IMG/VR virus record: IMGVR_UViG_3300012359_000004
Location: 1 to 56,404 of that record
DNA length: 56,404 nucleotides
Source of the DNA: a virus
Lineage: Duplodnaviria; Caudoviricetes
Strand: one strand, 5' to 3'
Shown: in pieces, positions 2,980-40,219 of the stretch
Numbering within the stretch: the first letter of the stretch is position 1
Layout: every line of letters begins with the position of its first letter
Program-made: the position numbers and the translations under genes
The notes under the pieces: generated by a model
What the model was told of the DNA's origin: nothing
Database searches by the model: none
What the model saw: only the letters and a program-made list of their open reading frames with translations

Positions 2980-4644
2980 CTACTTTGTTGCTACAGGCTC
3001 ATTCACCTGATTGTCTGGTTGATCTAGTGGTGGTTGCTGCTTCGCCTGGACAATCTGCAATGCCTTATCCTGTTGTGCCTGCTGAACTTGATTGGCCTTC
3101 TCTTGCAACGCTTGCAATTCGCCTATCTCTTCATCTGTCCAGCCCTCGTCCTTGAGCACCAATTCCAGCGGAACGCCCGCATCAACCGCCATTTTGACCC
3201 CTGTCCACATCGCCTGCTTTTCCAACGCTATTTCATATTTTGTTGGCCTGAGCAACGGACGCGGCATAATCGCCATGTCCAAATCGCCTTTGGTGTACGA
3301 GTCCAGGTTGAACGGCCTGAACTTTTGCTGTTGCCTATTGAGTGTGCCCCACGCGCCACCATTAGCACGAAAACCAGCGATGGCTGTAGCCATTTGGAAA
3401 AGTTTGATATTTCCCTGGTCATATGCGGCGGCAGCTTCACTAAAGCGAGAGTTCACATCTCCTACCAAACGCTCAGCCGCCGGTCCGGTGACCTGGGACA
3501 TGCCCCGAAGCTCCTTGTAGAACACCAATTCAGGGTGACTCTCTTCAATCTCTTTCTGAACGCGCCCAATTTCCAGGTCAGCTTCTGCCAAACTGAGATT
3601 GCCAACGAGGCTTTCCACGTGTGCATCAGCAGGTCCTCCGAGCATCAGCAAGCTTTCCTCATCGCCTGTTGGATAGGTAAAATCGGTCGTTGCGCCACGT
3701 TTGGGCTTATCAAATAAATTGGCAACTCTGCCAGAGCTCGCAATCAGCATTGGCGCGCCAATAATCTTATGGATTTGGTCATTGACGTGGCTTGCAAGAT
3801 TGTTCAACTCGTCTATTTTCCCGATACTGCCTGCAATGCAGGGGCTACCATGGGTACCGCCAATGTCAGTATGCTTTATCCACACAGCAGGCACGAAGCC
3901 ATACGGGTTCTCAACGACCGAGTTCCCATCGTAGCCGAACGGTGCCCCATCTTTGAAGTACCTGAACTGACGATCATCTACCTCTTTGCGATAGATATAC
4001 GAGGTCAGTTCGTCCCTGGCCTGATACTCGAGCGCATACGCCTTCACATTGCCAGCCGGATCAAGCTTGATCTCATTCACAAAGCCTGGCCATTGCACTT
4101 CAGCGCTGACCGTACCATCCTCCACGTCGTCTACCACTTCGATCAAGACAGAGCCAAGTGCTGCACCGTAGCGCACCTGTACCGACTTACGGGCTTGCCA
4201 GTTGCTCCACTGCCAGAATTGCGCTACAGCATCCTTAAGAGCAAGCGGTGTGTCCTGGGAGAATGGCACTGCTAATTGCACACCATCGGGCAACATGGCA
4301 CCGTCTTCAGAGAGCACGCCTGGGTAAATCTGGCCTGCGTAGAAGTCCACGAGGCGACGGGTGGGATTGTAGATCAAGCGAATATTGCGATAGAGGTTGT
4401 AGTTTTGCTTGTAGAGCTGCCACCCATTGGCAGAGACCTGCCACGTCGTGTTGAGATTGCCATTGAAGATGCTGGCCACCTTCTCGAACATGGCCCCGTT
4501 GTAGTACGCCCACAGGAGGTTGTACATCGAATATTGGTTGAGGTACAAGCCTTCCTGGTGAGCTTGTGAAGGGTCTTCAAAAACCCGTCGGGCGGCGGTA
4601 TAAGCTGCAATAGAAGCGTTAATCATCGTTCCAAGAATTCCCAT
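2980..4644 (-). CDS. portal protein
   Basis: 554 aa, downstream of terL, NPYGFVPAV motif, LWAYYNG N-terminal motif. Confidence 0.85.
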   Translation of the reverse strand: MGILGTMINASIAAYTAARRVFEDPSQAHQEGLYLNQYSMYNLLWAYYNGAMFEKVASIFNGNLNTTWQVSANGWQLYKQNYNLYRNIRLIYNPTRRLVDFYAGQIYPGVLSEDGAMLPDGVQLAVPFSQDTPLALKDAVAQFWQWSNWQARKSVQVRYGAALGSVLIEVVDDVEDGTVSAEVQWPGFVNEIKLDPAGNVKAYALEYQARDELTSYIYRKEVDDRQFRYFKDGAPFGYDGNSVVENPYGFVPAVWIKHTDIGGTHGSPCIAGSIGKIDELNNLASHVNDQIHKIIGAPMLIASSGRVANLFDKPKRGATTDFTYPTGDEESLLMLGGPADAHVESLVGNLSLAEADLEIGRVQKEIEESHPELVFYKELRGMSQVTGPAAERLVGDVNSRFSEAAAAYDQGNIKLFQMATAIAGFRANGGAWGTLNRQQQKFRPFNLDSYTKGDLDMAIMPRPLLRPTKYEIALEKQAMWTGVKMAVDAGVPLELVLKDEGWTDEEIGELQALQEKANQVQQAQQDKALQIVQAKQQPPLDQPDNQVNEPVATK

Positions 4645-9396: not shown

Positions 9397-10440
9397 ATGA
9401 CCAAAAGCGACGAATGGCCGCCGTTTGCCTTCGCGCCGTCCTCGCCCTGGGGCCGGTGCTATTCTGATTTCCTCCGGCGCAAATTTGACAGGTCCGGCAG
9501 TCAATCCACGCTGGACCACTACCGCCAGTACCTTGTGCAATTCTTCACCGAGCCCGCATTGATACCCGATGCCTACACGCGGGAACATGTGGAGGCGTTC
9601 GTACATTCACCCGGTCGTGGGCCTGGTAGGGAAGGCAATCCGCCTTCTGTTGGGCTCATGAACAATCGTCTCAGTGTGCTCAACTCGTTTTATGCTTATG
9701 CTGGTGGCTATGGCATCACGAACGAGCAGGGCATCATTGAGCCATTGATGAAAAGAATGCCACCCACAGCGGGATTGAAACAGATGCAGCGGGAGCAAGG
9801 CCCCTATCGTGCCCTCTCTGCGGAGGAGCTGCGTCGGTTCTTTGCCGCGATCCCACGAGACACGATTATCGGCATACGGGATTATGCGCTCTTTGCCACG
9901 TATTTCTTCACGGCGCGAAGACGCTCCGAGATCGTCAATTTGAAGTGGGGCGACATTGAAAAGACCACACTCATTGAGGCGAATGGTGGAAGGCGCGAAG
10001 GTTGGCTCTATCATTATCGGGCAAAAGCTCACAAGCGTCAGGATGCTACAGCGGAATTGCCACAGGTCGCTATGGAAGCTATTGTGCTGTACTTGGAAAA
10101 ATCAGGCAGGCTGGCGACCATCAAGCCGGAGGATTATATTTTCATCATGGCCGATCGACGCTATAAGCCCGATGCGAAGAAGCCATTGCACCCGAATACC
10201 GTGTGGCACGCAGTGAAGGTTTACGCTGCGCGGGCGGGGATACCGCAGGGGAAGATCACGACGCATTCTCTGAGGCACACAAGTGCTCGTGTCCGCTATG
10301 AAAGTGGAGTGGATATCAGGGAAATCCAACGCATCCTGGGCCATGCCAATCTCTCAGTAACGGATACATATCTCCGCCAACTTACGACCACAGCAGACCC
10401 TGGTGCAAAGTTTCTTGAGAAGAAGTTTGGGGACTTCTAG
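9397..10440 (+). CDS. tyrosine recombinase/integrase 1
   Basis: TARRRSEI, HSLRHT, ILGHAN..TDTY catalytic motifs. Confidence 0.95.
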   Translation: MTKSDEWPPFAFAPSSPWGRCYSDFLRRKFDRSGSQSTLDHYRQYLVQFFTEPALIPDAYTREHVEAFVHSPGRGPGREGNPPSVGLMNNRLSVLNSFYAYAGGYGITNEQGIIEPLMKRMPPTAGLKQMQREQGPYRALSAEELRRFFAAIPRDTIIGIRDYALFATYFFTARRRSEIVNLKWGDIEKTTLIEANGGRREGWLYHYRAKAHKRQDATAELPQVAMEAIVLYLEKSGRLATIKPEDYIFIMADRRYKPDAKKPLHPNTVWHAVKVYAARAGIPQGKITTHSLRHTSARVRYESGVDIREIQRILGHANLSVTDTYLRQLTTTADPGAKFLEKKFGDF

Positions 10441-10447
10441 ACGTGCA

Positions 10448-10485
10448 ATGAGGGCAAACATACTTCCATTTCTGTTTGCCCTCAT
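10448..10485. terminator. 13-bp hairpin between convergent genes
   Basis: ATGAGGGCAAACA / TGTTTGCCCTCAT. Confidence 0.5.
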
Positions 10486-10638
10486 CACGAGTCGCTTCAT
10501 TTGGCTGTGGTATGGCACTATGATAGCACGCTACGAAGCATCCTACAAGCCTCTGCTACGATTGTCCTACGTTCTACTCCATTGGACGCAGGGCAATCGC
10601 CATCATAAAATCTCTCGTGTGAATTTTGCGTGAATGGA

Positions 10639-11076
10639 TTAAGACAAATGTTTTTCGAGGTATTTTATCGCACTCTCTAAGCGGGTAAAGCTATCATTAG
10701 CAAAGCCCAACAGAGTATTACACTTTCGGCAAAGAAGCTCCCTTACTGTACCGCTATAATGACAATGATCAACTACAAGGTAATCTCCAGGTCCTGGCAG
10801 CACCCCACAAATGGCGCATCGTCCATTCTGTGCTTTAAGCATAGCAGCGTGATCATCAGGAGTTAACCCGTATTTACGTAAATGGCTAACATCTTTGTTA
10901 ACAGCAATAGTGTGCTGATTAGTCGGAGGTAAACAATCCCTAACAAGGGCAGTTTCTTCAGAGGCGGGTTGTATAAATTTAGCGCAAACACCACAGCAAA
11001 AAGCTTTTGGTGACATAGTACGCATTTTCCCACAGTTGCGACATAAGCGTTTTGGGCGTGGTACAATACCATTCAT
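10639..11076 (-). CDS. endonuclease VII-type homing endonuclease
   Basis: YGLT..QNGRCAIC..VDHCH..VRELLCRKCNTLLG; ATG 11076 follows GGAG of the conserved leader. Confidence 0.9.
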   Translation of the reverse strand: MNGIVPRPKRLCRNCGKMRTMSPKAFCCGVCAKFIQPASEETALVRDCLPPTNQHTIAVNKDVSHLRKYGLTPDDHAAMLKAQNGRCAICGVLPGPGDYLVVDHCHYSGTVRELLCRKCNTLLGFANDSFTRLESAIKYLEKHLS

Positions 11077-11160
11077 GGCAAGCTCCAATCTTGTCATCGG
11101 CTCAGGGGTATGTCCAGTACCGCCTGAGCAAAACAATTTTTACGCCTCTATTATACCATA
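11074..11160 (-). promoter_or_regulatory. conserved endonuclease leader (promoter + structured RNA), copy D
   Basis: TGGTATAAT; GCTCAGG-C-GGTA[CTGGACA]TACC-CCTGAGC; ATGACAAG[ATTGGAG]CTTGCCAT. Confidence 0.8.
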
Positions 11161-11180
11161 ATCTAGCCTCTTGTGTATAT

Positions 11181-11246
11181 AGGTTAAGGTTTCTCAATAC
11201 GATTTCCCCACAATGACCCTTGCAGGTTAAGGTTTCTCAATGCGAT
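11181..11246 (+). repeat. two 23-nt direct repeats, period 43
   Basis: AGGTTAAGGTTTCTCAAT(A/G)CGAT at 11181 and 11224. Confidence 0.9.
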
Positions 11247-11409
11247 AGGTGAATTTTTTCACACTCCCCATTTTGGATAATCTTGGGTTACAATAAAACA
11301 GTGAGAAACGTGGTGAGTGTTTTCTACCGTGCAACTCCACCAAAGATTACAGTTTATTCATAATTGCTCAGAGTCCGCGAAATTGGTGAAAATTTGCGTA
11401 TAGTACCCC

Positions 11410-11438
11410 TTGCAATTGATTACAGGGTATGTTACTAT
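11410..11438 (+). promoter_or_regulatory. early rightward promoter with overlapping imperfect inverted repeat
   Basis: TTGCAA-17-TACTAT; TACCC..GGGTA flanks. Confidence 0.55.
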
Positions 11439-11503
11439 CTTAATGCTGTTTAATATATTGTTATCTCAAATAACATATCGTAAAATCAAAGGGGGTCTGC
11501 GCT

Positions 11504-11704
11504 ATGAGCGCGCCAGCGATGACGGAAAAACTCTATACCATAGAAGAGGTCGCTAAAATTCTTGAGCTTCACCGGAATACCGTGAAAAAGAGAATTGAAG
11601 AGGGTGATCTTGTAGCCATCAAGGTTGGACGTGAATACAGAATCCGACCGCGAGACCTTGAAGATTTTATGGAGCGTAACCAGTACAGGCCAAAAGGCCA
11701 ATAA
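11504..11704 (+). CDS. excisionase/HTH_17 family DNA-binding protein
   Basis: LYTIEEVAKILELHRNTV..I..G.L.AIKVGREYRI. Confidence 0.9.
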   Translation: MSAPAMTEKLYTIEEVAKILELHRNTVKKRIEEGDLVAIKVGREYRIRPRDLEDFMERNQYRPKGQ

Positions 11705-12009
11705 ACGTGAAAGCGCCCGCCTCCCTGTCTGATTGCATTCCGACGTTTGGGAAACGAGCGCTGTAGTTCCAAGCAAAGAATACCATCTGCGTGAGGCAGT
11801 GTCAAGATTTGCTTGGTGGAAAGGGGTACCACTGTGTCATCTACAGACACAAAAATTGGCGGGAATAAACCCGCCACGAGTCCATCGCTCCAACCACGGT
11901 GTGACACCGTGTTACACAAGGACGATATTGTATATACAACAAACAACGAGTTTAGGCCGGTTTCTGTTGTCCATTGTAGCACATGGTGTAGCAGTCTGCG
12001 AGGTGAGTC

Positions 12010-12225
12010 ATGAACCGATTCACACCCGAAAGGCCGCCTCCACGAGACAAGCGCACTGTCGAGGAATTCAAACAGTTCCTCACGTGGGCGGGTAGTCCGT
12101 CCTATCCTGGGGTCTACATCCACCTGGCACGAGGCTGGTACCAGGGCCTACTCACCATCGAGGAAGGCCAGCGTATTGAAGCAGAGCGGCAGGTGTGGCA
12201 GTTCGTAGGGGTGCAACATGAATGA
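12010..12225 (+). CDS. hypothetical protein
   Basis: GAGGTGA RBS. Confidence 0.65.
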   Translation: MNRFTPERPPPRDKRTVEEFKQFLTWAGSPSYPGVYIHLARGWYQGLLTIEEGQRIEAERQVWQFVGVQHE

Positions 12226-12364
12226 GCCTGTTTACGGCGTTGCACCGGGCGCAACATACGACCCTGACATTGATCTGCTGTACGAGGATGACGATGAGGA
12301 CACAGTGAAGCGGGCAGCTATTGATAGTACGGTGAAGTTACGGCGCGTGGAGGTGGCAGTATGA
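12218..12364 (+). CDS. small acidic hypothetical protein (48 aa)
   Basis: MNEPVYGVAPG...; overlaps both neighbours. Confidence 0.55.
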   Translation: MNEPVYGVAPGATYDPDIDLLYEDDDEDTVKRAAIDSTVKLRRVEVAV

Positions 12365-12570
12365 GCAATCCAGGCAACTTAGGCCAGCGGTTCCGTATGT
12401 CGAAGCTGACCGGCGTAGAGGTCAAAGGCGGGAAGGTTGTGTTCCATCTCGAATGTGGGCACGACTACAGCAGTACTCCGCTATGGGGTACGCCTGAAGA
12501 GTCAGCAGAGCGAGCACAGGCCCGGATTGGCAAGCGGGAGCGATGCGACAAATGTATGGAGAGATCATGA
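12361..12570 (+). CDS. small zinc-binding protein
   Basis: LECGH..RCDKC; GGAGG RBS. Confidence 0.65.
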   Translation: MSNPGNLGQRFRMSKLTGVEVKGGKVVFHLECGHDYSSTPLWGTPEESAERAQARIGKRERCDKCMERS

Positions 12571-12788
12571 TTACCGACCTCATCGCCCACTGTGAGCAGC
12601 AGCTCCACCTCGAAGCCGTCTACCACGAGGCCAAAGCCGCCGAGCGTGCGGCATGGCAAGCCGATATCGACAATCCACATTGCCATCACGAGCGGTTCTA
12701 TTCCCAGTGCTACCTGCGTGCATTTTGGGCGATGCGTGAGGCATGGTGGAACTGGCGGGCTGCGTGTGAGAGGGAGGGTACGAAATGA
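12567..12788 (+). CDS. hypothetical protein
   Basis: ATGA overlap. Confidence 0.6.
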   Translation: MITDLIAHCEQQLHLEAVYHEAKAAERAAWQADIDNPHCHHERFYSQCYLRAFWAMREAWWNWRAACEREGTK

Positions 12789-12960
12789 TGACCGTTCTCC
12801 GAAACTTGGACATTTAGGACAGGCCCAAACGTCACGTTCGGTTCTTCGTTCAACGAGAAGAGTTTCGCTTGAGATTGCTCTCAAGCCAGCGCTCCTCTCT
12901 CCCGAAGCGTAACTTTCCGTGGAACTCACGGTAGTTCTCAAGTCTGGTAGCCATCAGAAG
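12772..12960 (-). ncRNA. putative TnpB omegaRNA (scaffold to 12792, guide about 12791-12772)
   Basis: hairpins CCGTGAG/TCCACGG, CTTGAGA[GCAA]TCTCAAG, GAGAGGAG/CTCTTCTC; internal promoter-like TTGCCG-17-GAGAAT at 13119-13091; 5' boundary uncertain. Confidence 0.65.
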
Positions 12961-13178
12961 CCTTGGTTTTTGGCTTCTGGCAAGTAGAAAGAGAAGTGTA
13001 CATTGGTCAACACGCTAGTGTTTTTACCCACGGAAACGGTTTACCGTGGAACCCACAAGCACTATTCAGTTATCAAGGTACTACAGATATATTCTCTCAC
13101 AGGAGACAAAAAGCGGCAATGGAAGAGAAGTCCATGAAGGGATATGAATGTCCATGTTTTCAGAAGCTAGTTATGACC
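12792..13178 (-). mobile_element. non-autonomous IS607-family element carrying a TnpB-type omegaRNA scaffold
   Basis: CC core at both ends; imperfect inverted subterminal motifs (GAAACTTGGACATTTA vs AAAACATGGACATTCA); right end ..TGTCCAAGTTTCGGAGAACGG; relic TnpB tail TVSSTESYASGERSAG; removal restores RBS-ATGATGACCCTCCTC. Confidence 0.75.
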
Positions 13179-13289
13179 CTCCTCTCTCGACTCATCATGC
13201 TCTCCGTGTGGCTCTTTCTGCTGGCCTGCTACATCGGATTTGTCTACGTGCTGTGGCTGGCGGTCACGACACCCATTCCGGGGAATTGA
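13173..13289 (+). CDS. small membrane protein (38 aa); start supplied by the element end
   Basis: MTLLSRLIMLSVWLFLLACYIGFVYVLWLAV.. Confidence 0.55.
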   Translation: MTLLSRLIMLSVWLFLLACYIGFVYVLWLAVTTPIPGN

Positions 13290-13297
13290 GGGAAGCC

Positions 13298-13534
13298 ATG
13301 AACGATAACCCCGACGTCTACAACGTCACCATCCAGCATGTGGCCATTGCCGCGTCTACGATTGGCTTCGATGTGCTACGTAAGCCAGGATACTACATCA
13401 TCCTCACCGATGCTCTGCCCGGCTATGGAGACGCGGTAAAGTTCCCTGATAGCCCACATGGCTACACAGAGGCCCTGGCATGGATACGGAAAATAGCGGG
13501 CGATGAGGAGGCCAATCCTGAGCAAGCAGTTTGA
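13298..13534 (+). CDS. hypothetical protein
   Basis: GAGGGA RBS. Confidence 0.6.
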   Translation: MNDNPDVYNVTIQHVAIAASTIGFDVLRKPGYYIILTDALPGYGDAVKFPDSPHGYTEALAWIRKIAGDEEANPEQAV

Positions 13535-13874
13535 CCGCAAATTATTCAGTGCCTCTATCCAGGCAAAGTTGCTCGAGTCGCAGCTTAGCTTGCGAGAAGC
13601 GGCAAAGGAATCTGGTATCAGTCTGGCTACCCTGAGTCGCCTCAGCAATGGCAAAGTACCGGATATCGATCATTTCGTGGCCGTGGTTCGCTGGCTCCAA
13701 ATCGATGCGAATGCGTTTATGGATGCACCGCGGGGAGCAATCCTGACCAATCGTGAAAAGTGGGCGTGGCTCTATCTGTGCCTGCGAGACTTGGATGTAC
13801 CGGAAGAAGTGATTCAAGCCATAATCACCGTCATCAAAGTGGTAAAGCGGGGAAGCGAGGCCAATCGTGACTGA
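13503..13874 (+). CDS. XRE/Cro-family HTH transcriptional regulator
   Basis: LSLREAAKESGISLATLSRLSNGKVPD. Confidence 0.88.
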   Translation: MRRPILSKQFDRKLFSASIQAKLLESQLSLREAAKESGISLATLSRLSNGKVPDIDHFVAVVRWLQIDANAFMDAPRGAILTNREKWAWLYLCLRDLDVPEEVIQAIITVIKVVKRGSEANRD

Positions 13875-13879
13875 GCCAC

Positions 13880-14215
13880 GTCAGGAACCCTATAGCAAAA
13901 GCTATGGGTTTGCAAACTGTTGAGCATTTTAGCTCAGGCTGTTACAAGCCCTACCTGACCAGACCCAGCCAGGAAGAGATATCACCCATATCTCTTTATC
14001 GGGCTACGATACCGGCAATGTCAAAGAACGTACCAATGGGTGCGAGGCCAGCCCATTGCTCTATAACTCTCGAATTAACCAGGTTCATAGTAGGGGTTAA
14101 AGCCAGTGTTCGAGAGATGTGCAGACCGGTATCATCGTCGAGGCCACCATTACCCGGGAAACCGGTGGGAGTTACCGGCCTACTCCATATCAACAAGGCC
14201 GCCCCGCAAGGGGAG
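13880..14215 (+). ncRNA. IscB/IsrB-type omegaRNA (HEARO-like) scaffold with no iscB gene
   Basis: GTCAGG..CCTGACCAGAC P1, end hairpin AACCCTATAGC[AAAA]GCTATGGGTT, GGCTACGATACCGG..CCGGTATC, CAATGGGTGC..AGCCCATTG, CTCTCGAA..TTCGAGAG, GTCGAGGCCACCATTACC, CCGG[GAAA]CCGG, CCCC[GCAA]GGGG in the order typical of HEARO. Confidence 0.85.
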
Positions 14216-14298
14216 ATGAAAGGTAGCGAGGCATGAGTGATGTAGTTCCCAGTGGGAGTGTGTTGGTATGGAATATAAAGACGACGTATAGTTTCCAC

Positions 14299-14327
14299 TT
14301 GACCGAATTGTATCAATGTGGTATGCT
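14299..14327 (+). promoter_or_regulatory. promoter of the replication operon
   Basis: TTGACC-17-TATGCT, extended -10 TG. Confidence 0.65.
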
Positions 14328-14365
14328 TACAGTGGCATATCGTACGTATGCCAAAGGAGGTTCTA

Positions 14366-14563
14366 GTGATCACTATGGACTATTTAACCGCAGAGGAGGT
14401 AGCTACAGAGCTTCGATATTCGGTCACAACTGTAAAACGGATGCTTCGTACCAACGAAATGCCAGGCTACAAGTTTGGCGGCGAATGGCGCATCGACCGG
14501 GCCGAGTACGAAGAGTGGAAGCGACAACGCAAAAATCAATATCAGAAACCAGCAGAGGATTAA
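14366..14563 (+). CDS. HTH_17/excisionase-family DNA-binding protein
   Basis: YLTAEEVATELRYSVTTVKRML..MPGYKFGGEWRI; GGAGG RBS. Confidence 0.88.
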   Translation: MITMDYLTAEEVATELRYSVTTVKRMLRTNEMPGYKFGGEWRIDRAEYEEWKRQRKNQYQKPAED

Positions 14564-14706
14564 CTGACCTTCTGGTTTTTCCAGTAGCGCACGTGCTGCA
14601 AAGAAGTCTCCACACACCTATGCAGCACGCTGTGTAGCACTACCTCTATGCATTTTTGCACATGTTGGGCAAGGATGCAAGGGGTAGGGAGAAAGCGAGA
14701 TAACAA

Positions 14707-15159
14707 ATGACACTTCTAGCGGGGCATATCACACCAGAGGAAGCCGAAACCTCTGATCCAACACTGGGCGTTGAGTTTGAGCCTGAACACAATCAGGTCG
14801 TGGTCTACATCGATGAAGGCCATAGTCAAACTGAGGTGAGTTTGACTTATCGGCAAGTCTGTCAACTTCAAGGTATGGTCGCCCAGGCAAGAAGCGCAAT
14901 GGAATGGCATAACGCTACATGGGTCTCTGCCTCTGAGCGATACAAGGTACCTTGTATCGAGCACCTGATGAAAAAAGGTGAGCATGACCCAAAGGGCAAA
15001 ACGCTTTGTGGAAGGGTGCCATCAGAGTTTGACTTACTCATTGGTGGGTGGCAACTTTACCCCATTCGCGGGGAGCCTTCACGCACGCTCCGCGATAAGT
15101 TTACAGGTGGCACCTGTAAGCAGTGCCTTAAAAGATACGACAAAGCAATGCAAGGGTAG
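14707..15159 (+). CDS. hypothetical protein with H/C zinc motif
   Basis: H..TLCG..TCKQC. Confidence 0.65.
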   Translation: MTLLAGHITPEEAETSDPTLGVEFEPEHNQVVVYIDEGHSQTEVSLTYRQVCQLQGMVAQARSAMEWHNATWVSASERYKVPCIEHLMKKGEHDPKGKTLCGRVPSEFDLLIGGWQLYPIRGEPSRTLRDKFTGGTCKQCLKRYDKAMQG

Positions 15160-15210
15160 TTGGCAGGGAATACTGCTATTTCTCATAACGTGAAGGGTAA
15201 GGGCAATTGT

Positions 15211-16554
15211 ATGAGTAAACGGGATGATTTTACTTTCAACGGTTTTGAACCGGCTAATACCACGCCGGTGCCAGATATTCTTTTTGATGAACTTTTATCA
15301 CAACTCACTGGGGCAGAACTCAAGGTACTCCTCTACATCATCAGGCGTACCAGGGGCTTCAAGAAAGACACCGATGCTATTTCTTTAAGCCAATTTCAAA
15401 AAGGCATCATCACGAAAGAGAGAAAACAGCTTGATAAAGGGTGTGGTGTAGGAGATCGTCAAACGATCATTGATGCCCTGGCTTCCCTAGAAAAGAAAAA
15501 ATGCATTGTGAGCGAGAAAACCAAGACAGTAAAAGGCGACAATGCTACGACGCTCTATCGCATTTTATTCAGTCAAGAGGTAGTGGGAAAAGCCTACCAC
15601 GGTAGTAGGGAAAAGCCTACCACGGTAGTGGGAAAAGCCTACCACCGTGGTAGGGAAAATGGCACTACCGTAGTTGGGAATTCCAACCCACAAGAAACAG
15701 TATTACAACAAACAGATTCACAAGAAACAGTATCACAAGAGAGTGTTACGCCCACCATTGCAGATATGCCAGCATGTGGCGCTAGCGCGCCAGCACCCTC
15801 TGCTTTGCCTCTTCAAGAAAAAACTGATAAGCAAGAGATACCGGTGACTTATGCTGATTGCCTTGCTTATCTCCAAGAGCATAACGCTCTCCCTCAAGGC
15901 GATGCCGTTCAGCAGATGACTCAGGCTCGCATACTTTACGCTTCTCAGCAGAAAGGACAAACCGATGGACATAGCCAGCTTCGTAGCACTCATCATGGTG
16001 CTGATTACCCTGATAGTGGCAGCGTTAGTCATCCTGGAGAAGCCGAAGGACAACGGATAGAACAGACACCCTCCTCCACGCCTGTTCAGGTTCTCCCCCC
16101 ACTTGCCACTTTGAGCAAGATGCCTGAACAGGCCGCGTTCATGGCACCTGCGGAACCGAAGCCGCGTGCAAAGGCAGCACCGAAAAAGCCCGTAGAGAAA
16201 CCAGCCGGGCCACCTGTCGCGCCTCCTGTGGACATGGAGTGGAGCACACGTAAATGCTTGCAATGGTTCGACTTCTGGCGTGGAGCTCCACTTATCGGCA
16301 AATTCAAGCTGATGCAGGCCTCCACGTGTGCCAAAGGACTGGCAGAGAACTATTCTGAAGCGCAGGTGCTCAGTGCGCGTACGGACATGGAAGCGGATGT
16401 GTACTGGATGGCTAGGGGTGGCTGTGATGTGTGCGATGTGGCGAATAACATTCACAAATATGTCAGGAAGCGCCAACTAACGATTGCGGAGAAAGCGAAA
16501 GACGCCGCGCCGGTGAAGATTACTCGTGAAATGTTGCACCAAAGGAAACCATGA
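15211..16554 (+). CDS. phage replication initiator (O-like winged helix)
   Basis: NTTPVPDILFD..LTGAELKVLLYIIRRTRGF..DAISLSQF; internal iterons; upstream of dnaB. Confidence 0.88.
   Translation: MSKRDDFTFNGFEPANTTPVPDILFDELLSQLTGAELKVLLYIIRRTRGFKKDTDAISLSQFQKGIITKERKQLDKGCGVGDRQTIIDALASLEKKKCIVSEKTKTVKGDNATTLYRILFSQEVVGKAYHGSREKPTTVVGKAYHRGRENGTTVVGNSNPQETVLQQTDSQETVSQESVTPTIADMPACGASAPAPSALPLQEKTDKQEIPVTYADCLAYLQEHNALPQGDAVQQMTQARILYASQQKGQTDGHSQLRSTHHGADYPDSGSVSHPGEAEGQRIEQTPSSTPVQVLPPLATLSKMPEQAAFMAPAEPKPRAKAAPKKPVEKPAGPPVAPPVDMEWSTRKCLQWFDFWRGAPLIGKFKLMQASTCAKGLAENYSEAQVLSARTDMEADVYWMARGGCDVCDVANNIHKYVRKRQLTIAEKAKDAAPVKITREMLHQRKP
15579..15740 (+). repeat. iterons / probable replication origin within the initiator gene
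   Basis: 3-5 copies of GGTAGT(A)GGGAAAAGCCTACCAC followed by A-rich 15-mers CACAAGAAACAGTAT. Confidence 0.85.
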
Positions 16555-17891
16555 TGACAGAGAAATGGGTACCGACCAACGTGGAGGCAGAAGAAAGCGT
16601 GCTTTCTCACCTGCTCAGTGCTCCACGCAAAATTACGGAAGTGGTAGACCGCTTATCCCCTGAGCACTTCTGTTCAGATCGTGCCAGCCGCATCTACCAA
16701 CTCATGGTGACGTTAGCGCATCAGGGGAAGGCATGTACCGTCTCTAACGTCTATGATGCCTGGGCAAGAATGTATGGCATGGATGATGAAGTCTACGACT
16801 TTCTTGAAGATCGCTATGGTCTTTTCTCAGCATTCATGACGCCCTTCGAGGACCAGGTAGAGAAGGTCATTCGCGTGCATACCATGCGCCGTCTCATCTC
16901 AGCCGCCCAGCACATCGCGGAAGTCGCCTACGCTCAGGACGACAATGCTATGGACGTGGCAGAACAACTCATTTACGATATTGCCAGGGGCGTAGATGGT
17001 GACACAGTGGCAACGCTGGCAGAGGTGAAACAGCGCTATATGCAGGAGTTTGAACAGCGCCGTGAAAACCTCCTCAATGGCATTGCCAACGGCATCCCGA
17101 CCGGCTTTCATGAGCTTGATACAATCCTGGGAGGACTCCAACCATCCAATCTCTATACCCTCGCAGCTCGCCCTAGCCTGGGTAAGACAGCCCTGGCTCT
17201 CAACATTGCCCTGTACATCGCTAGACATGCCCGCCGGTGCCTGTTCTTTAGCCTGGAAATGAGCGAGTCAGAATTATTCCAGCGCTTGCTAGCCATAGAA
17301 ACGCCCGTTGACCAATCGTTCTTGCGCGACGGCGATGTGAACGAGCAGGAGTTGGAAGATATCCGCTACACGGCGAACGATCTGGCCAACCTGGATATGC
17401 TGATAGACGACCGGACATACACACTTGCGGGCATCTGTAGTAAGGCCCGGCGCGAACATGCCCGCAAACCGCTTAACCTCATTGTGGTTGATTATCTCCA
17501 ATTGATCGATACCGCCCCGGAGGGCCGAAGCAAGAACAAGATGCGCTATGAGGAGGTGGGCGAATTCTCGAAGCGATTGAAACGCCTGTCCAAAGAGTTG
17601 AAAGTGCCGGTCATTGCCATAGCTCAGTTAAACCGCGACGTAGAAAGCCGACAAAGCCCAAAGCCGCGTATGTCTGATTTAGGCGAAAGTGGCAAACTTG
17701 AGCAGGATATGGACGTTGTGGCCTTCGTCTACTGCGAGGAGGCAGAGATCAAGAAAAAGGAGAATTGCGAACCGTATCAGGTGCATGTCAATGTCGCAAA
17801 ACATCGAAACGGGCGACTGGGGGACGTAGCCTTGTGGTTCAGGCCCCGGATCACTAAATTTCAGGACGAGGAACCGGACTATGACGAGTGA
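16551..17891 (+). CDS. dnaB: replicative DNA helicase
   Basis: AARPSLGKT, FSLEM, IVVDYLQL, AQLNR, SGKLEQD, KHRNG. Confidence 0.97.
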   Translation: MMTEKWVPTNVEAEESVLSHLLSAPRKITEVVDRLSPEHFCSDRASRIYQLMVTLAHQGKACTVSNVYDAWARMYGMDDEVYDFLEDRYGLFSAFMTPFEDQVEKVIRVHTMRRLISAAQHIAEVAYAQDDNAMDVAEQLIYDIARGVDGDTVATLAEVKQRYMQEFEQRRENLLNGIANGIPTGFHELDTILGGLQPSNLYTLAARPSLGKTALALNIALYIARHARRCLFFSLEMSESELFQRLLAIETPVDQSFLRDGDVNEQELEDIRYTANDLANLDMLIDDRTYTLAGICSKARREHARKPLNLIVVDYLQLIDTAPEGRSKNKMRYEEVGEFSKRLKRLSKELKVPVIAIAQLNRDVESRQSPKPRMSDLGESGKLEQDMDVVAFVYCEEAEIKKKENCEPYQVHVNVAKHRNGRLGDVALWFRPRITKFQDEEPDYDE

Positions 17892-35114: not shown

Positions 35115-35225
35115 ACTAGCCTTTCAAGCGGATTTATGGTATAATAAGAACACCAAAAATGGTGTTGCCCTGGCGATGCTGGAAACATCCCAAGGCGTGA
35201 TAGCAAAGTTAGGAGCTTTACTATG
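35115..35225 (+). promoter_or_regulatory. conserved endonuclease leader, copy C
   Basis: TGGTATAAT; GCCCTGG-C-GATG[CTGGAAA]CATC-CCAAGGC; ATAGCAAAG[TTAGGAG]CTTTACTAT. Confidence 0.8.
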
Positions 35226-36191
35226 AAACCTATTATACCTCAAAAACATTGTTCCAAATGTCAACAAGAAAAACCTCTTACGAGAGAGTACTTTCATTGT
35301 GACAAATACCAAAAAGATGGCTTTACTAGCCGATGTATTGTTTGTCGTACTCCACCTAAAGTTATTCGCCTTCCTAAAGATACTGCCCCTGAAGGATATA
35401 AAACTTGTGATACGTGCAATCAGGTTTATCTTGCTACTACTGAGTTTTTTCATAGAGCACCGGACACTTATGACAGACTGCGATCTCGATGCAAAATATG
35501 TCAGAAAGAACATGATCGCCTTCGATACGCTCAAATGAAAGAGCATCCACTTAAAGATATGATTCCAAGCCATTTGACTTGCCCTATGTGTGAGCAATGT
35601 AAGCCAATTGCTCTTTTTCATAAAAGCCCAAAGGGGAAATATGGCTTGGCTGCCTACTGTAAGATTTGTGCTGCTCAAGTTGGCAAGCGTAGCCTTGCCA
35701 AACCAGAAGTAAAAGCTAAAGCAGACAAGCGTAGAAAAGACTATTATTATGAACATCAGGAAGAACAAAAGCAAAGCCGCCAGCAATGGTATCAAGCCAA
35801 TAGGGAACGCGTTCTTGAGGGAGACCACCAGTTCAGAAAAGAACATCCTGAAATCCTTGCTGAAAGATGGCAACGTTGGGCAAAGACTGAGCGCGGGTAT
35901 GAGCATTGTCGTGTACGTGTGCGCAATCGTCATGCTCGCAGTAAGGGAGCGCAAGGGAATTATACCTTTAACGATATTCAAAAGCAGTATGCAAATCAGA
36001 AGGGCAAATGCTACTATTGTCGGGTTAAGATAAAAAATCACACAAGCGCTTACCATATTGAGCATGTAATACCCCTCTCTCGTGGAGGGACTAATGATAT
36101 GAGCAATATTGTTCTTGCTTGTCCTTCCTGTAATCTGAGCAAAAGCAACAAGCTTCCCCATGAATGGCCCCAGGGAAACCGCTTGCTCTAA
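35223..36191 (+). CDS. HNH homing endonuclease with three CxxC..CxxC zinc modules
   Basis: CYYC..HIEHVIPLSRGGTN..NIVLACPSCNLSK. Confidence 0.93.
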   Translation: MKPIIPQKHCSKCQQEKPLTREYFHCDKYQKDGFTSRCIVCRTPPKVIRLPKDTAPEGYKTCDTCNQVYLATTEFFHRAPDTYDRLRSRCKICQKEHDRLRYAQMKEHPLKDMIPSHLTCPMCEQCKPIALFHKSPKGKYGLAAYCKICAAQVGKRSLAKPEVKAKADKRRKDYYYEHQEEQKQSRQQWYQANRERVLEGDHQFRKEHPEILAERWQRWAKTERGYEHCRVRVRNRHARSKGAQGNYTFNDIQKQYANQKGKCYYCRVKIKNHTSAYHIEHVIPLSRGGTNDMSNIVLACPSCNLSKSNKLPHEWPQGNRLL

Positions 36192-39367: not shown

Positions 39368-40087
39368 TTATGTAAGCTCTTCTAAGTAGGTGATAAGGGC
39401 TTTCAGGTGCTCAGTACTGTCCTGAACCATCCCCAAAGCCACATTACATTTATGGCAAAGCAGACCGCGAACCTTGCCCGTATCATGATCGTGGTCAACG
39501 TGGTAACGCTCTCTTCTCCCATGTGGAGGCCCTTTGCATACCTTGCACACTCCACCTTGTACCTCAAGCATAGCGTCATATTCTGCACTGGTTATCCCAT
39601 AGAGCCTTTGTAGGCTTTTATTTCGTTGGTGTGCAGGATTTGATGATGGGTACTTCGTCCCTTTTACATATGGGCGATATGGGCGTGTTTCACTAAGGCA
39701 TTGCTTACAACTGGAAGCCACACCTACACTTCTTCCCGACCTTTTTGTGAAATCTGAAAGAGGCTTCGGTTGATGGCATCTTGAGCATTCTTTCTTTATA
39801 TCAAGAGTTACAAGACACTGTATGCATGTATTTCTGTCGAGTTTAGTCCTTGTCCTGGGAAATTCTGAGAGAGGCTTCATTTCATGACAGTATAAACAGC
39901 ATTTTTCCTTTGGAGCGGCAACGCACTGCTTACACTGGGAAGCAACGCCTATCTTGCGGCCCTTTCTCTTATGGAAATCTGAGAAGGGCTTCACCTTACC
40001 ACATTTTGAACAAGGTTTTACCTTCTGAGGGGAATCAATGAAAGAGAGTTCTTGCTGAAAAAGGCCATGAGGTGATATGGTATTCAC
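39368..40087 (-). CDS. endonuclease VII-type homing endonuclease with zinc modules
   Basis: YGIT..QGGVCKVC..HVDHDHDTGKVRGLLCHKCNVALG; GTG start after AGGAGG. Confidence 0.92.
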   Translation of the reverse strand: MNTISPHGLFQQELSFIDSPQKVKPCSKCGKVKPFSDFHKRKGRKIGVASQCKQCVAAPKEKCCLYCHEMKPLSEFPRTRTKLDRNTCIQCLVTLDIKKECSRCHQPKPLSDFTKRSGRSVGVASSCKQCLSETRPYRPYVKGTKYPSSNPAHQRNKSLQRLYGITSAEYDAMLEVQGGVCKVCKGPPHGRRERYHVDHDHDTGKVRGLLCHKCNVALGMVQDSTEHLKALITYLEELT

Positions 40088-40194
40088 GATGAACCTCCTA
40101 CAAAGGTTTATCCGGCCTGGGGGTGTTAGCGCACCCGCCAGGTACACAATATTTCTAATGTGCTTATCATACCATACATCGGCTTTAGAAGCAA
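40085..40194 (-). promoter_or_regulatory. conserved endonuclease leader, copy B
   Basis: TTGCTT-17-TATGAT; CCTGG-C-GGGTG[CGCTAA]CACCC-CCAGG; GATAAACCT[TTGTAGG]AGGTTCATC. Confidence 0.8.
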
Positions 40195-40219
40195 GTTTAT
40201 CCACTATTTGCTACTCTCC

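Follow-up and report, generated by a model that had tools for sequence, protein, structure and literature searches.

Two protein-less OMEGA guide RNA elements at gene junctions of a tailed phage genome

The 56,404-bp genome held as IMG/VR virus record IMGVR_UViG_3300012359_000004, called the window here (the whole stretch of DNA that was analysed), carries two short elements with an OMEGA guide RNA and no protein. One is an IS605-type element whose TnpB-type omegaRNA points left, and the other is an ISC-type element whose IscB-type omegaRNA points right. The identity and intact structure of the RNAs, their presence as discrete insertions with empty sites, the absence of an effector from the phage, and the abundance of such elements in candidate hosts were all observed. 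It is highly probable that the two are what they appear to be in identity and origin. The explanation that we consider probable on balance is that they are two independent, non-autonomous, guide-only elements of the IS200/IS605 superfamily (IS, insertion sequence) with a selfish homing use that proceeds through host enzymes. Actual use of the RNAs with host nucleases is held tentatively, as a possibility slightly short of even. The parts of the two elements are as follows.

12789–13179, minus strand: left element, protein-less and IS605-type, 391 nt (empty-site contig and borders predicted from host copies)
13120–13179, minus strand: left end of the left element, terminus GGGTCATAAC at 13179 (aligns with host solo elements and with L076)
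13091–13119, minus strand: promoter-like region, TTGCCG (13119–13114), 17-nt spacer and GAGAAT (13096–13091), with TGn before it
12952–13084, minus strand: leader module B, between promoter and core (72–81% identical to copies in genomes G001, G003 and G004)
12788–12937, minus strand: TnpB-type omegaRNA core and right end (match of model R1)
12773–12788, minus strand: putative TnpB-type guide, the 16 nt directly 3′ of the right end (flanks 3′ of the core vary in every host copy, alignment A2)
13880–14251, plus strand: right element, protein-less and ISC-type, 372 nt (Rfam match and empty site in L099)
13864–13879, plus strand: putative IscB-type guide, the 16 nt directly 5′ of the scaffold (variable flank; 16/16 match in L099)

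Structure of the two elements

The right element begins with a match to HEARO (RF02033) at 13880–14153 on the plus strand, which covers model positions 1–211 of 211 with 100 bits against a gathering score of 83 (E about 1e-20). HEARO is now known as the omegaRNA of IscB, and it is the only Rfam family above its gathering score in the whole window. The match is followed by a conserved 3′ extension up to a hairpin at 14202–14213 and then by a 38-nt tail. Across all 37 copies of the family the scaffold start GTCAGG is conserved and the 45 nt upstream of it vary, a pattern that points to 13864–13879 as the guide of the RNA. Within the window this 16-mer has no match besides its own flank. The window copy keeps 62 of the 63 consensus pairs of the family, one being broken. 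Compensatory changes occur at 36 of the 63 pairs among the 36 IscB-less copies of the covariation set, from which L017 was left out, its start being unclear. No IscB open reading frame (ORF), with RuvC and HNH parts, starts at the 3′ end of the HEARO RNA; the gene that comes next encodes an 81-aa HTH_17 protein.

The left element, read on the minus strand, consists of the left end, the promoter-like region, the leader module, the omegaRNA core and the right end, in that order. The conserved core spans about 12792–12932 and is followed by TCA at 12789–12791. A search of 12000–15000 with Rfam gave nothing besides HEARO, even at E<=10, and it was blastn against fetched loci that revealed the 360-nt gap at 12789–13147 to be in part a repeat. 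The region had also been considered as a mere hairpin-rich intergenic spacer (folding z-scores of -2.25 on the minus and -1.11 on the plus strand), a view that was dropped after host copies linked to tnpB were found. Block A (12790–12934) has some 16 matching copies in genome G003. A covariance model, R1, was built from 14 host copies (alignment A4) with the window excluded; it matches 12788–12937 on the minus strand over the full model length with 115.8 bits (E about 1e-27) and marks 4 non-standard pairs in the core of the window. Among the host copies, compensatory changes occur at 8 of the 36 pairs of the consensus fold.

In 8 of the 14 host copies of A4 the core starts 5–10 nt past the stop of a 380–386-aa ORF. 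Two of these eight ORFs were scanned with Pfam and are TnpB (HTH_OrfB_IS605, OrfB_IS605 and Cas12f1-like TNB), and the other six were assigned to tnpB by ORF position and by aligned tnpB 3′ ends. A core of ~145 nt, ACCGTGAGTT to AACGG, is common to the host copies, and all likeness between them ends after AACGG; a TnpB omegaRNA scaffold with a flank-derived guide behind it would show this pattern. By this reading 12773–12788, which overlaps the last codons and the stop of ORF 12543–12788, would be the guide of the TnpB-type RNA. In the window the 16-mer matches itself only, the next best match having 3 mismatches, which is chance level. No tnpB gene is found upstream of the RNA within the left element. 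Among viral contigs, L094, L095 and L097 have this core behind a tnpB gene, L096 has it behind a truncated tnpB, and in L098 it occurs on its own. L094 and L095 are near-identical, tRNA-rich viral contigs (~17 tRNA genes in L094), each with two tnpB genes that have R1-type cores.

The promoter-like region aligns with the TTGACA-17-TATAAT/TATGAT boxes of L051, L053, L056 and L072 and with the TAGAAT box of units in genome G001, and on this likeness it may be active. Those four loci are solo copies in G003, in which the left-end region is followed by a promoter (TTGACA/TTGGCA-17 nt-TATAAT/TATGAT) and, about 20 nt on, by the core. The solo units of G001 hold a promoter, block B and a related core that scores 51–52 bits with R1; in these tnpB-less units module B precedes the core, and they adjoin unrelated genes, e.g. 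those for a LacI-type regulator, a phenol hydroxylase and a chromate transporter. The strong promoter of the tnpB-less host copies suggests that protein-less elements are selected to express the RNA. Sequences upstream of the left-end terminus vary between copies (alignment A5), and the border in the window is given by a contig joint described below. From the left-end flanks of 6 copies no consistent target-adjacent motif (TAM) could be read. A conserved region upstream of tnpB in L059, L062, L066, L070 and L077 resembles, as read from the letters, the C-terminal portion of a serine recombinase. Should this hold, they would be of IS607 type, whereas L076 has an IS605-type left end, and one core would serve both types.

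The phage itself appears to encode no enzyme for either element. Domain searches with RRXRR, OrfB_IS605, Cas12f1-like TNB and Y1_Tnp gave no match at E<=1 anywhere in the window, and tblastn with one host TnpB gave none. With nine host IscB proteins the sole tblastn match in the window was the HNH part of a homing-type endonuclease gene at 35223–36191, 21 kb off. Its 322-aa product was considered as the missing effector and rejected, since its matches are to HNH/EndoVII families of phage homing endonucleases and it lacks any RRXRR or RuvC part. A preliminary description, made from the letters of the window, had placed a left-pointing TnpB-type and a right-pointing IscB-type omegaRNA within 12772–14230, both structurally intact, in an apparently complete genome with no recognisable effector or transposase. 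All of this is borne out. The span is nearly exact, the right element extending to 14251.

Empty sites, relatives and gene context

Contigs from four soil-metagenome DNA runs (X1–X4) were placed on window positions 10000–17000 at 80% likeness. A minor contig in X1 and X2 (depth 2.7 versus about 15) joins 12788 to 13180, so that exactly 391 nt are skipped and 6 other letters stand in their place. The joint agrees at both borders with the ends predicted independently from host copies. This element-free allele retains the ATGA stop/start overlap between ORF 12543–12788 and a small membrane-like ORF, and the left element therefore sits exactly on a gene junction. Depth over 12808–13275 and 13978–14211 is about three times the baseline, which at 80% likeness points to further copies of both repeat families in the same samples. 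A metagenome scan for the exact empty-site junction of the left element found none.

The empty site of the right element comes from L099, part of a 55.8-kb metagenome contig that was retrieved by an exact 29-mer of the right flank and is the same relative as that in X3 and X4. Its identity to the window is 74% over 12200–12788, 88% over 13280–13521 and 99.3% over 14252–14656. In L099 CAATCGTGACTGAGCCAC runs directly into GTGGGAGTGTGTTGG, and in the window 372 nt (13880–14251) separate these strings; L099 has the intact empty site of the right element, and the junction can be written as GT|GG. The right element had earlier been regarded as a truncated, immobile relic, a view that was softened once L099 showed a precise empty site. 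The 16-nt guide of the IscB-type RNA matches L099 at 16/16, exactly at the unoccupied site. The target of the TnpB-type RNA in L099 has 2 differences from the window in the first 19 nt past the junction, one of them inside the 16-nt guide. L099 has an unrelated 72-aa ORF in the position of the XRE-type gene of the window and a 91-aa ORF in place of the left element and the small ORF. R1 gives no match on L099, and both L099 and the X3/X4 contigs are without both RNAs and without the XRE gene.

L099 and the window are 99.3% identical over a block of 405 nt at 14252–14656 (L099 3257–3662) that contains the HTH_17 gene with its promoter region, against 69–88% for the other aligned blocks. The X3 contig is identical to the window over 14252–14645. 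The block starts precisely where the right element is inserted and stops at a further non-homologous replacement, and it may represent a tract of recent recombination or co-conversion.

The window is a whole virus record with direct terminal repeats and 100% CheckV completeness, classed complete. It is the genome of a tailed phage, with genes for a large terminase, a major head protein, a DnaB-like helicase, a replication-O-like protein, two tyrosine integrases and several HNH/EndoVII homing-type endonucleases. The phage is probably temperate: with two tyrosine integrases it would spend time as a prophage and be exposed to host transposition. Between the two RNAs lie three small genes.

about 13173–13289: small membrane-like ORF
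13309–13534: 75-aa ORF
13503–13874, plus strand: XRE-type helix-turn-helix (HTH) gene (Pfam HTH_3, E 2.6e-5)

The last 11 nt of the XRE gene (13864–13874), stop codon included, fall within the IscB-type guide. A junction motif, GAGGC.CAATCGTGA, recurs between successive early genes, at 13855–13879 in the window and at 2815–2830, 3041–3054 and 3229–3247 in L099. It consists of a ribosome-binding site and then a GTG start overlapping a TGA stop, and makes up most of the IscB-type guide. The tail of the right element (14233–14251) contributes GAAAGG...ATG in frame with ORF 14233–14637, and L099 has the same frame with a GTG start at the junction; this ORF is probably spurious, as it overlaps the Pfam-supported HTH_17 gene in another frame. 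Three homing-type HNH/EndoVII genes lie at 35223–36191 on the plus strand and at 10639–11136 and 39368–40204 on the minus strand. The first of them is on the opposite strand within the structural module, in a stretch with a GC content of 0.43, and is overlapped by an antisense 373-aa ORF without a family match. Related phages were reached solely through RNA patterns and the one exact 29-mer. Searches of cultured-phage records (n=50,697) by blastn with both regions gave no match, and searches of viral contigs with one protein each (XRE, replication or integrase) gave no relatives.

Copies in viral contigs and candidate hosts

A degenerate HEARO pattern led to 14 viral loci (L003–L016), 11 of which have HEARO over threshold, with 13 matches in total. 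An IscB ORF lies behind the RNA in five of them (L003, L004, L007, L013 and L014) and none lies behind it in L006, for which only 544 nt downstream were available, or in L008, L010, L011 and L016; L012 ends at the contig end. A 19-mer is common to the window, L006, L008 and L016, as is the conserved 3′ extension past the Rfam model, which ends in a CCCC-GCAA-GGGG hairpin. IscB-less copies of the subfamily of the window are thereby present in three further phage contigs, at different positions, and the extension is common to these 3 phage copies and many host copies. The two kinds of RNA occur together in 0 of 19 other viral loci, R1 being absent from L003–L016 and HEARO from L094–L098. Tandem HEARO pairs are found in two viral contigs, one with two omegaRNAs before one IscB (L004 3455–3891) and one with two and no IscB (L010 12035–12518).

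A scan for the context of the 19-mer, with one genome per prokaryote species, gave 33 loci, of which 7 are from Dictyobacter, 5 from metagenome-assembled genomes (MAGs) of Ktedonobacteraceae and 21 from MAGs named 'uncultured Chloroflexia' in the record titles. By tblastn with 9 IscB proteins, IscB is detectable in 1 of the 33 (L037), upstream of the RNA and not downstream; a few of the 33 loci have under 1.6 kb of downstream DNA. Most host copies have a distal hairpin CCTCCCC...GGGGTATCC in a tail of 100–140 nt. The same hairpin stands after iscB stops in full-length host elements. The IscB-less phage copy L008 also has it, and L006 and L016 have a variant of it. Since these host copies retain the hairpin of full-length elements, they are internal-deletion derivatives with both ends kept. 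IscB-linked omegaRNAs of the host genomes are distinct from the scaffold of the window and yet related to it, with about 68–70% identity over parts. In L027 and L040 one loop of the HEARO scaffold (alignment A6, columns 224–275) is enlarged by the same palindromic insertion of 50 nt, which may be a nested miniature insertion.

Five Chloroflexota genomes (G001–G005) were searched as candidate hosts. Matches to the left region number 8 in G001, 19 in G003 and 4 in G004, and in G003 TnpB genes stand beside copies of the core. All five hold RRXRR (IscB) matches (28, 3, 21, 10 and 4 per genome) and Y1_Tnp matches (16, 18, 9, 6 and 6 per genome). On such sequence evidence the host is probably a member of the Chloroflexota, class Ktedonobacteria. 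Standalone host guides were also compared with the window phage. The best of 50 is the 16-nt flank of the tnpB-less copy L051, which matches the window at 35527 on the minus strand, inside the HNH gene, at 15/16; this low-complexity match has no surrounding homology and was not counted as significant.

These surveys bear on the remaining proposals of the preliminary description. It had taken the two RNAs and the genes between them for one candidate system from which both proteins had been lost, and had suggested a survey of related phages for retention and covariation of both scaffolds and for guide variability. Covariation is found for both scaffolds (36/63 pairs for the IscB-type, 8/36 for the TnpB-type), the flanks vary in all 37 IscB-type copies and in every host TnpB-type copy, and the scaffolds are not confined to one genome, as copies occur in Chloroflexota genomes and in other viral contigs. 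The supposed need for host IscB or TnpB fits the 3–28 RRXRR matches per genome in each of the five candidate hosts. The RNAs do flank three small genes including the XRE regulator, but a unit of two RNAs around XRE does not stand, L099 being without both RNAs and without XRE. Nor do the relatives jointly retain the RNAs, since L099 and the X3/X4 contigs lack both, and a two-RNA system is contradicted by the different families of the elements and by their separate occurrence in the other viral loci. Loss of both proteins by decay in place is likewise not what is seen: the elements are discrete insertions with identifiable empty sites. The same protein-less architectures recur many times in host genomes, and the elements therefore most likely arrived already without proteins.

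Possible use of the guides and its meaning

According to the parts of the literature consulted, elements of the IS200/IS605 superfamily move by TnpA, the RNA used by TnpB or IscB has as its guide the DNA that borders the element on the RNA side, and the nuclease cuts the element-free joint, whose repair restores or spreads the element (10.1101/2023.03.14.532601; PMC10691335). As summarised in PMC10691335 and PMC9581776, there are omegaRNAs without an effector that are mobilised and that function in trans with a compatible IscB, and their role is called unknown; a 2026 review (PMC13565253) names, in the part seen, co-infecting phages as possible targets of non-restorative homing. In the explanation that we favour, both elements would have inserted at gene junctions of the early operon of a probably temperate Chloroflexota phage. 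Encoding no protein, they would depend on host TnpA for movement and on host TnpB or IscB for any RNA-guided cutting. With the guide taken from the DNA that adjoins an element at its RNA end, the target of each RNA is that very phage locus in genomes free of the insertion. During co-infection or lysogeny, a host nuclease with a phage-borne RNA would cut the element-free allele, such as that of L099 or the X1/X2 variant, and repair of the cut allele would copy the element in, resulting in selfish homing or retention. Of these steps, we infer the expression of the RNAs, their loading onto host nucleases, the compatibility of the TAM and homing itself.

Several points weigh against this explanation. 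The making or loading of either RNA is an assumption: the promoter-like boxes of the window agree with 8 of 12 consensus positions, which is under the scan threshold and weaker than in host copies, and a promoter scan upstream of the HEARO guide predicted none. The distal hairpin of most host copies is absent from the 38-nt tail of the right element, and given this short tail the element may no longer be mobile. Part of the covariation among IscB-less copies could be a legacy of ancestors that were linked to IscB. The host copies are only 71–81% identical to the phage copies, which places the donor outside the genomes examined; the host assignment itself is based on shared elements at this identity and on co-occurrence in samples, and a search for large terminase in G001–G005 gave no prophage relative. 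X1 and X2 may be the source of the window itself and are maybe not mutually independent. The X1/X2 allele differs slightly from the window and is therefore a variant strain and no simple excision product.

It is somewhat unlikely, in our judgement, that the elements are inert hitch-hikers, i.e. ordinary miniature IS insertions at tolerated junctions whose RNAs are unused and whose intactness reflects recent arrival and constraint in the host source copies. The phage needs neither element, as both are missing from the closest relative and the left one from a co-occurring variant, and no other viral locus examined has the two kinds together. The two tyrosine integrases and a probable prophage stage with exposure to host transposition, the weaker promoter boxes of the window and the short distal end of the right element also agree with passive carriage. 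The whole scaffolds, about 335 nt and about 145 nt, are however intact, and the ends that TnpA needs in IS200/IS605 elements are far shorter than these. Moreover, tnpB-less host copies keep a strong internal promoter right before the RNA, which argues for selected expression, and IscB-less copies of the same subfamily are found at different positions in 3 further phage contigs.

As a weapon that benefits the phage and not the element alone, the RNAs might re-aim host IscB or TnpB at related, insertion-free rivals and so provide superinfection or marker exclusion, which we regard as very unlikely. A natural relative (L099 and the X3/X4 contigs) does have a perfect 16/16 target of the IscB-type guide; the lineages recombine, as the 405 nt right of the site are 99.3% identical against 69–88% elsewhere; and with at least three homing-type HNH/EndoVII genes, tactics of marker exclusion are already in the repertoire. 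Yet a perfect target of this kind follows from the very way in which guides arise in these elements. The insertion site fixes the guide, so that only near-identical alleles of one junction can be reached, and within the window the guides match their own flanks only. The TnpB-type target of L099 differs at 2 of 19 nt, one within the 16-nt guide, and there is no sign of retention across phage relatives. A combined form is distinctly unlikely, if less so: phages of Chloroflexota, probably of Ktedonobacteria, would borrow host IscB and TnpB as homing endonucleases against co-infecting relatives, driving the element and its flanking genes in or excluding competitors. Under this form the 405-nt, 99%-identical block would be a co-conversion tract.

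Titration of host nucleases is highly improbable. Abundant phage-made scaffolds could act as decoys for IscB or TnpB if standalone host guides defend against phages; host genomes do hold dozens of such guides, and that of L051 matches the window at 15/16. That match, nevertheless, is a low-complexity 16-mer without homology around it and the best of 50, for which our own estimate of finding matches with <=1 mismatch by chance is about 0.06; a decoy would need neither an intact guide-proximal end nor transposon ends, and the elements are absent from the closest relatives. Regulation of the early operon, by antisense to the end of ORF 12543–12788 or by insulators or terminators around the XRE gene, is scarcely probable at all. 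Both elements lie at stop/start junctions of co-directional early genes, and the 3′ part of the left RNA is antisense to the last codons of the upstream ORF; but no terminator-like site is predicted in 12300–14800, relatives run the same operon without the elements, and the sequences are copies of generic host repeat families and not specific to phages.

Both elements belong to known kinds, and standalone omegaRNAs working in trans are already published. The closest parallel to the right element is the set of standalone IscB omegaRNAs of Ktedonobacter racemifer (K. racemifer), which in the accounts seen in part (PMC10691335 and PMC9581776, citing Altae-Tran 2021) have a HEARO-type scaffold, a variable 5′ flank and no adjacent IscB or transposase. 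They are present in many copies in genomes that hold IscB, are evidently mobilised, and are reported to work in trans with a compatible IscB (PMC10691335, PMC9581776). The host clade would be the same if the Chloroflexota MAGs are Ktedonobacteria. Unlike these, as far as the accounts describe them, the copy of the window lies in a complete phage without any IscB, and the nuclease would come from the host genome. The ISC transposons of K. racemifer (Kapitonov et al. 2016, PMC4810608) are described with a GT|GG-type target, no target duplication, a conserved 5′ terminus and predicted mobilisation in trans by Y1 transposases; the right element resembles them in its GT|GG junction, insertion without target duplication, conserved 5′ terminus and predicted trans mobilisation, and differs in lacking iscB and the distal terminal hairpin.

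The left element is best compared with palindrome-associated transposable elements (PATEs), which often encode omegaRNAs (Meers et al., 10.1101/2023.03.14.532601) and are also named in PMC4810608. As in PATEs, both ends are present with no ORF, TnpA and TnpB would act in trans, and presence or absence of the left element is polymorphic. Unlike PATEs as described in the part of that source seen (10.1101/2023.03.14.532601), the left element and its host relatives have an internal sigma-70-like promoter before the RNA, some with a ~130-nt leader, and the element is borne by a phage. With regard to a PATE-type nature, the ends of the left element align with those of host solo elements, the empty sites are precise for both elements, and Y1_Tnp is present in 5/5 candidate hosts, so that host Y1 transposases are candidate sources in trans for these ends.

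The TldR proteins of phages, nuclease-dead TnpB with a guide RNA, are a further parallel, being a case of a TnpB-family guide RNA in a temperate phage. TldR phages, as the partial account has it, encode the protein and their guide represses a host gene; here no protein is encoded and the guide is flanking phage DNA. Some viruses carry mini-CRISPR arrays without cas genes, which are thought to use host Cas proteins in inter-virus conflicts. The likeness lies in a virus that carries only the guide part, with an effector of the host and related viruses as targets; the RNA class and the effector are different, and those spacers are acquired and directed against other viruses, whereas here the guide is fixed by the insertion site. 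In the literature searched (titles and the starts of abstracts, with supplements outside), no account of omegaRNA-only elements in phage genomes was found, and the phage context of guide-only elements is probably unreported so far.

The locus combines two standalone omegaRNAs in a nuclease-free virus with element-free alleles from the same and other soil metagenomes and with a relative that has an exact guide target. It turns the role of effector-less guides into a testable question. If the RNAs are unused, the locus is a clean natural case of miniature IS200/IS605 elements colonising phage gene junctions. If they are used, guide RNAs would cross genome boundaries to re-aim a host enzyme in phage-phage conflict, and if host IscB and TnpB are indeed borrowed as homing endonucleases, these elements would be the OMEGA counterpart of virus-borne mini-CRISPR arrays.

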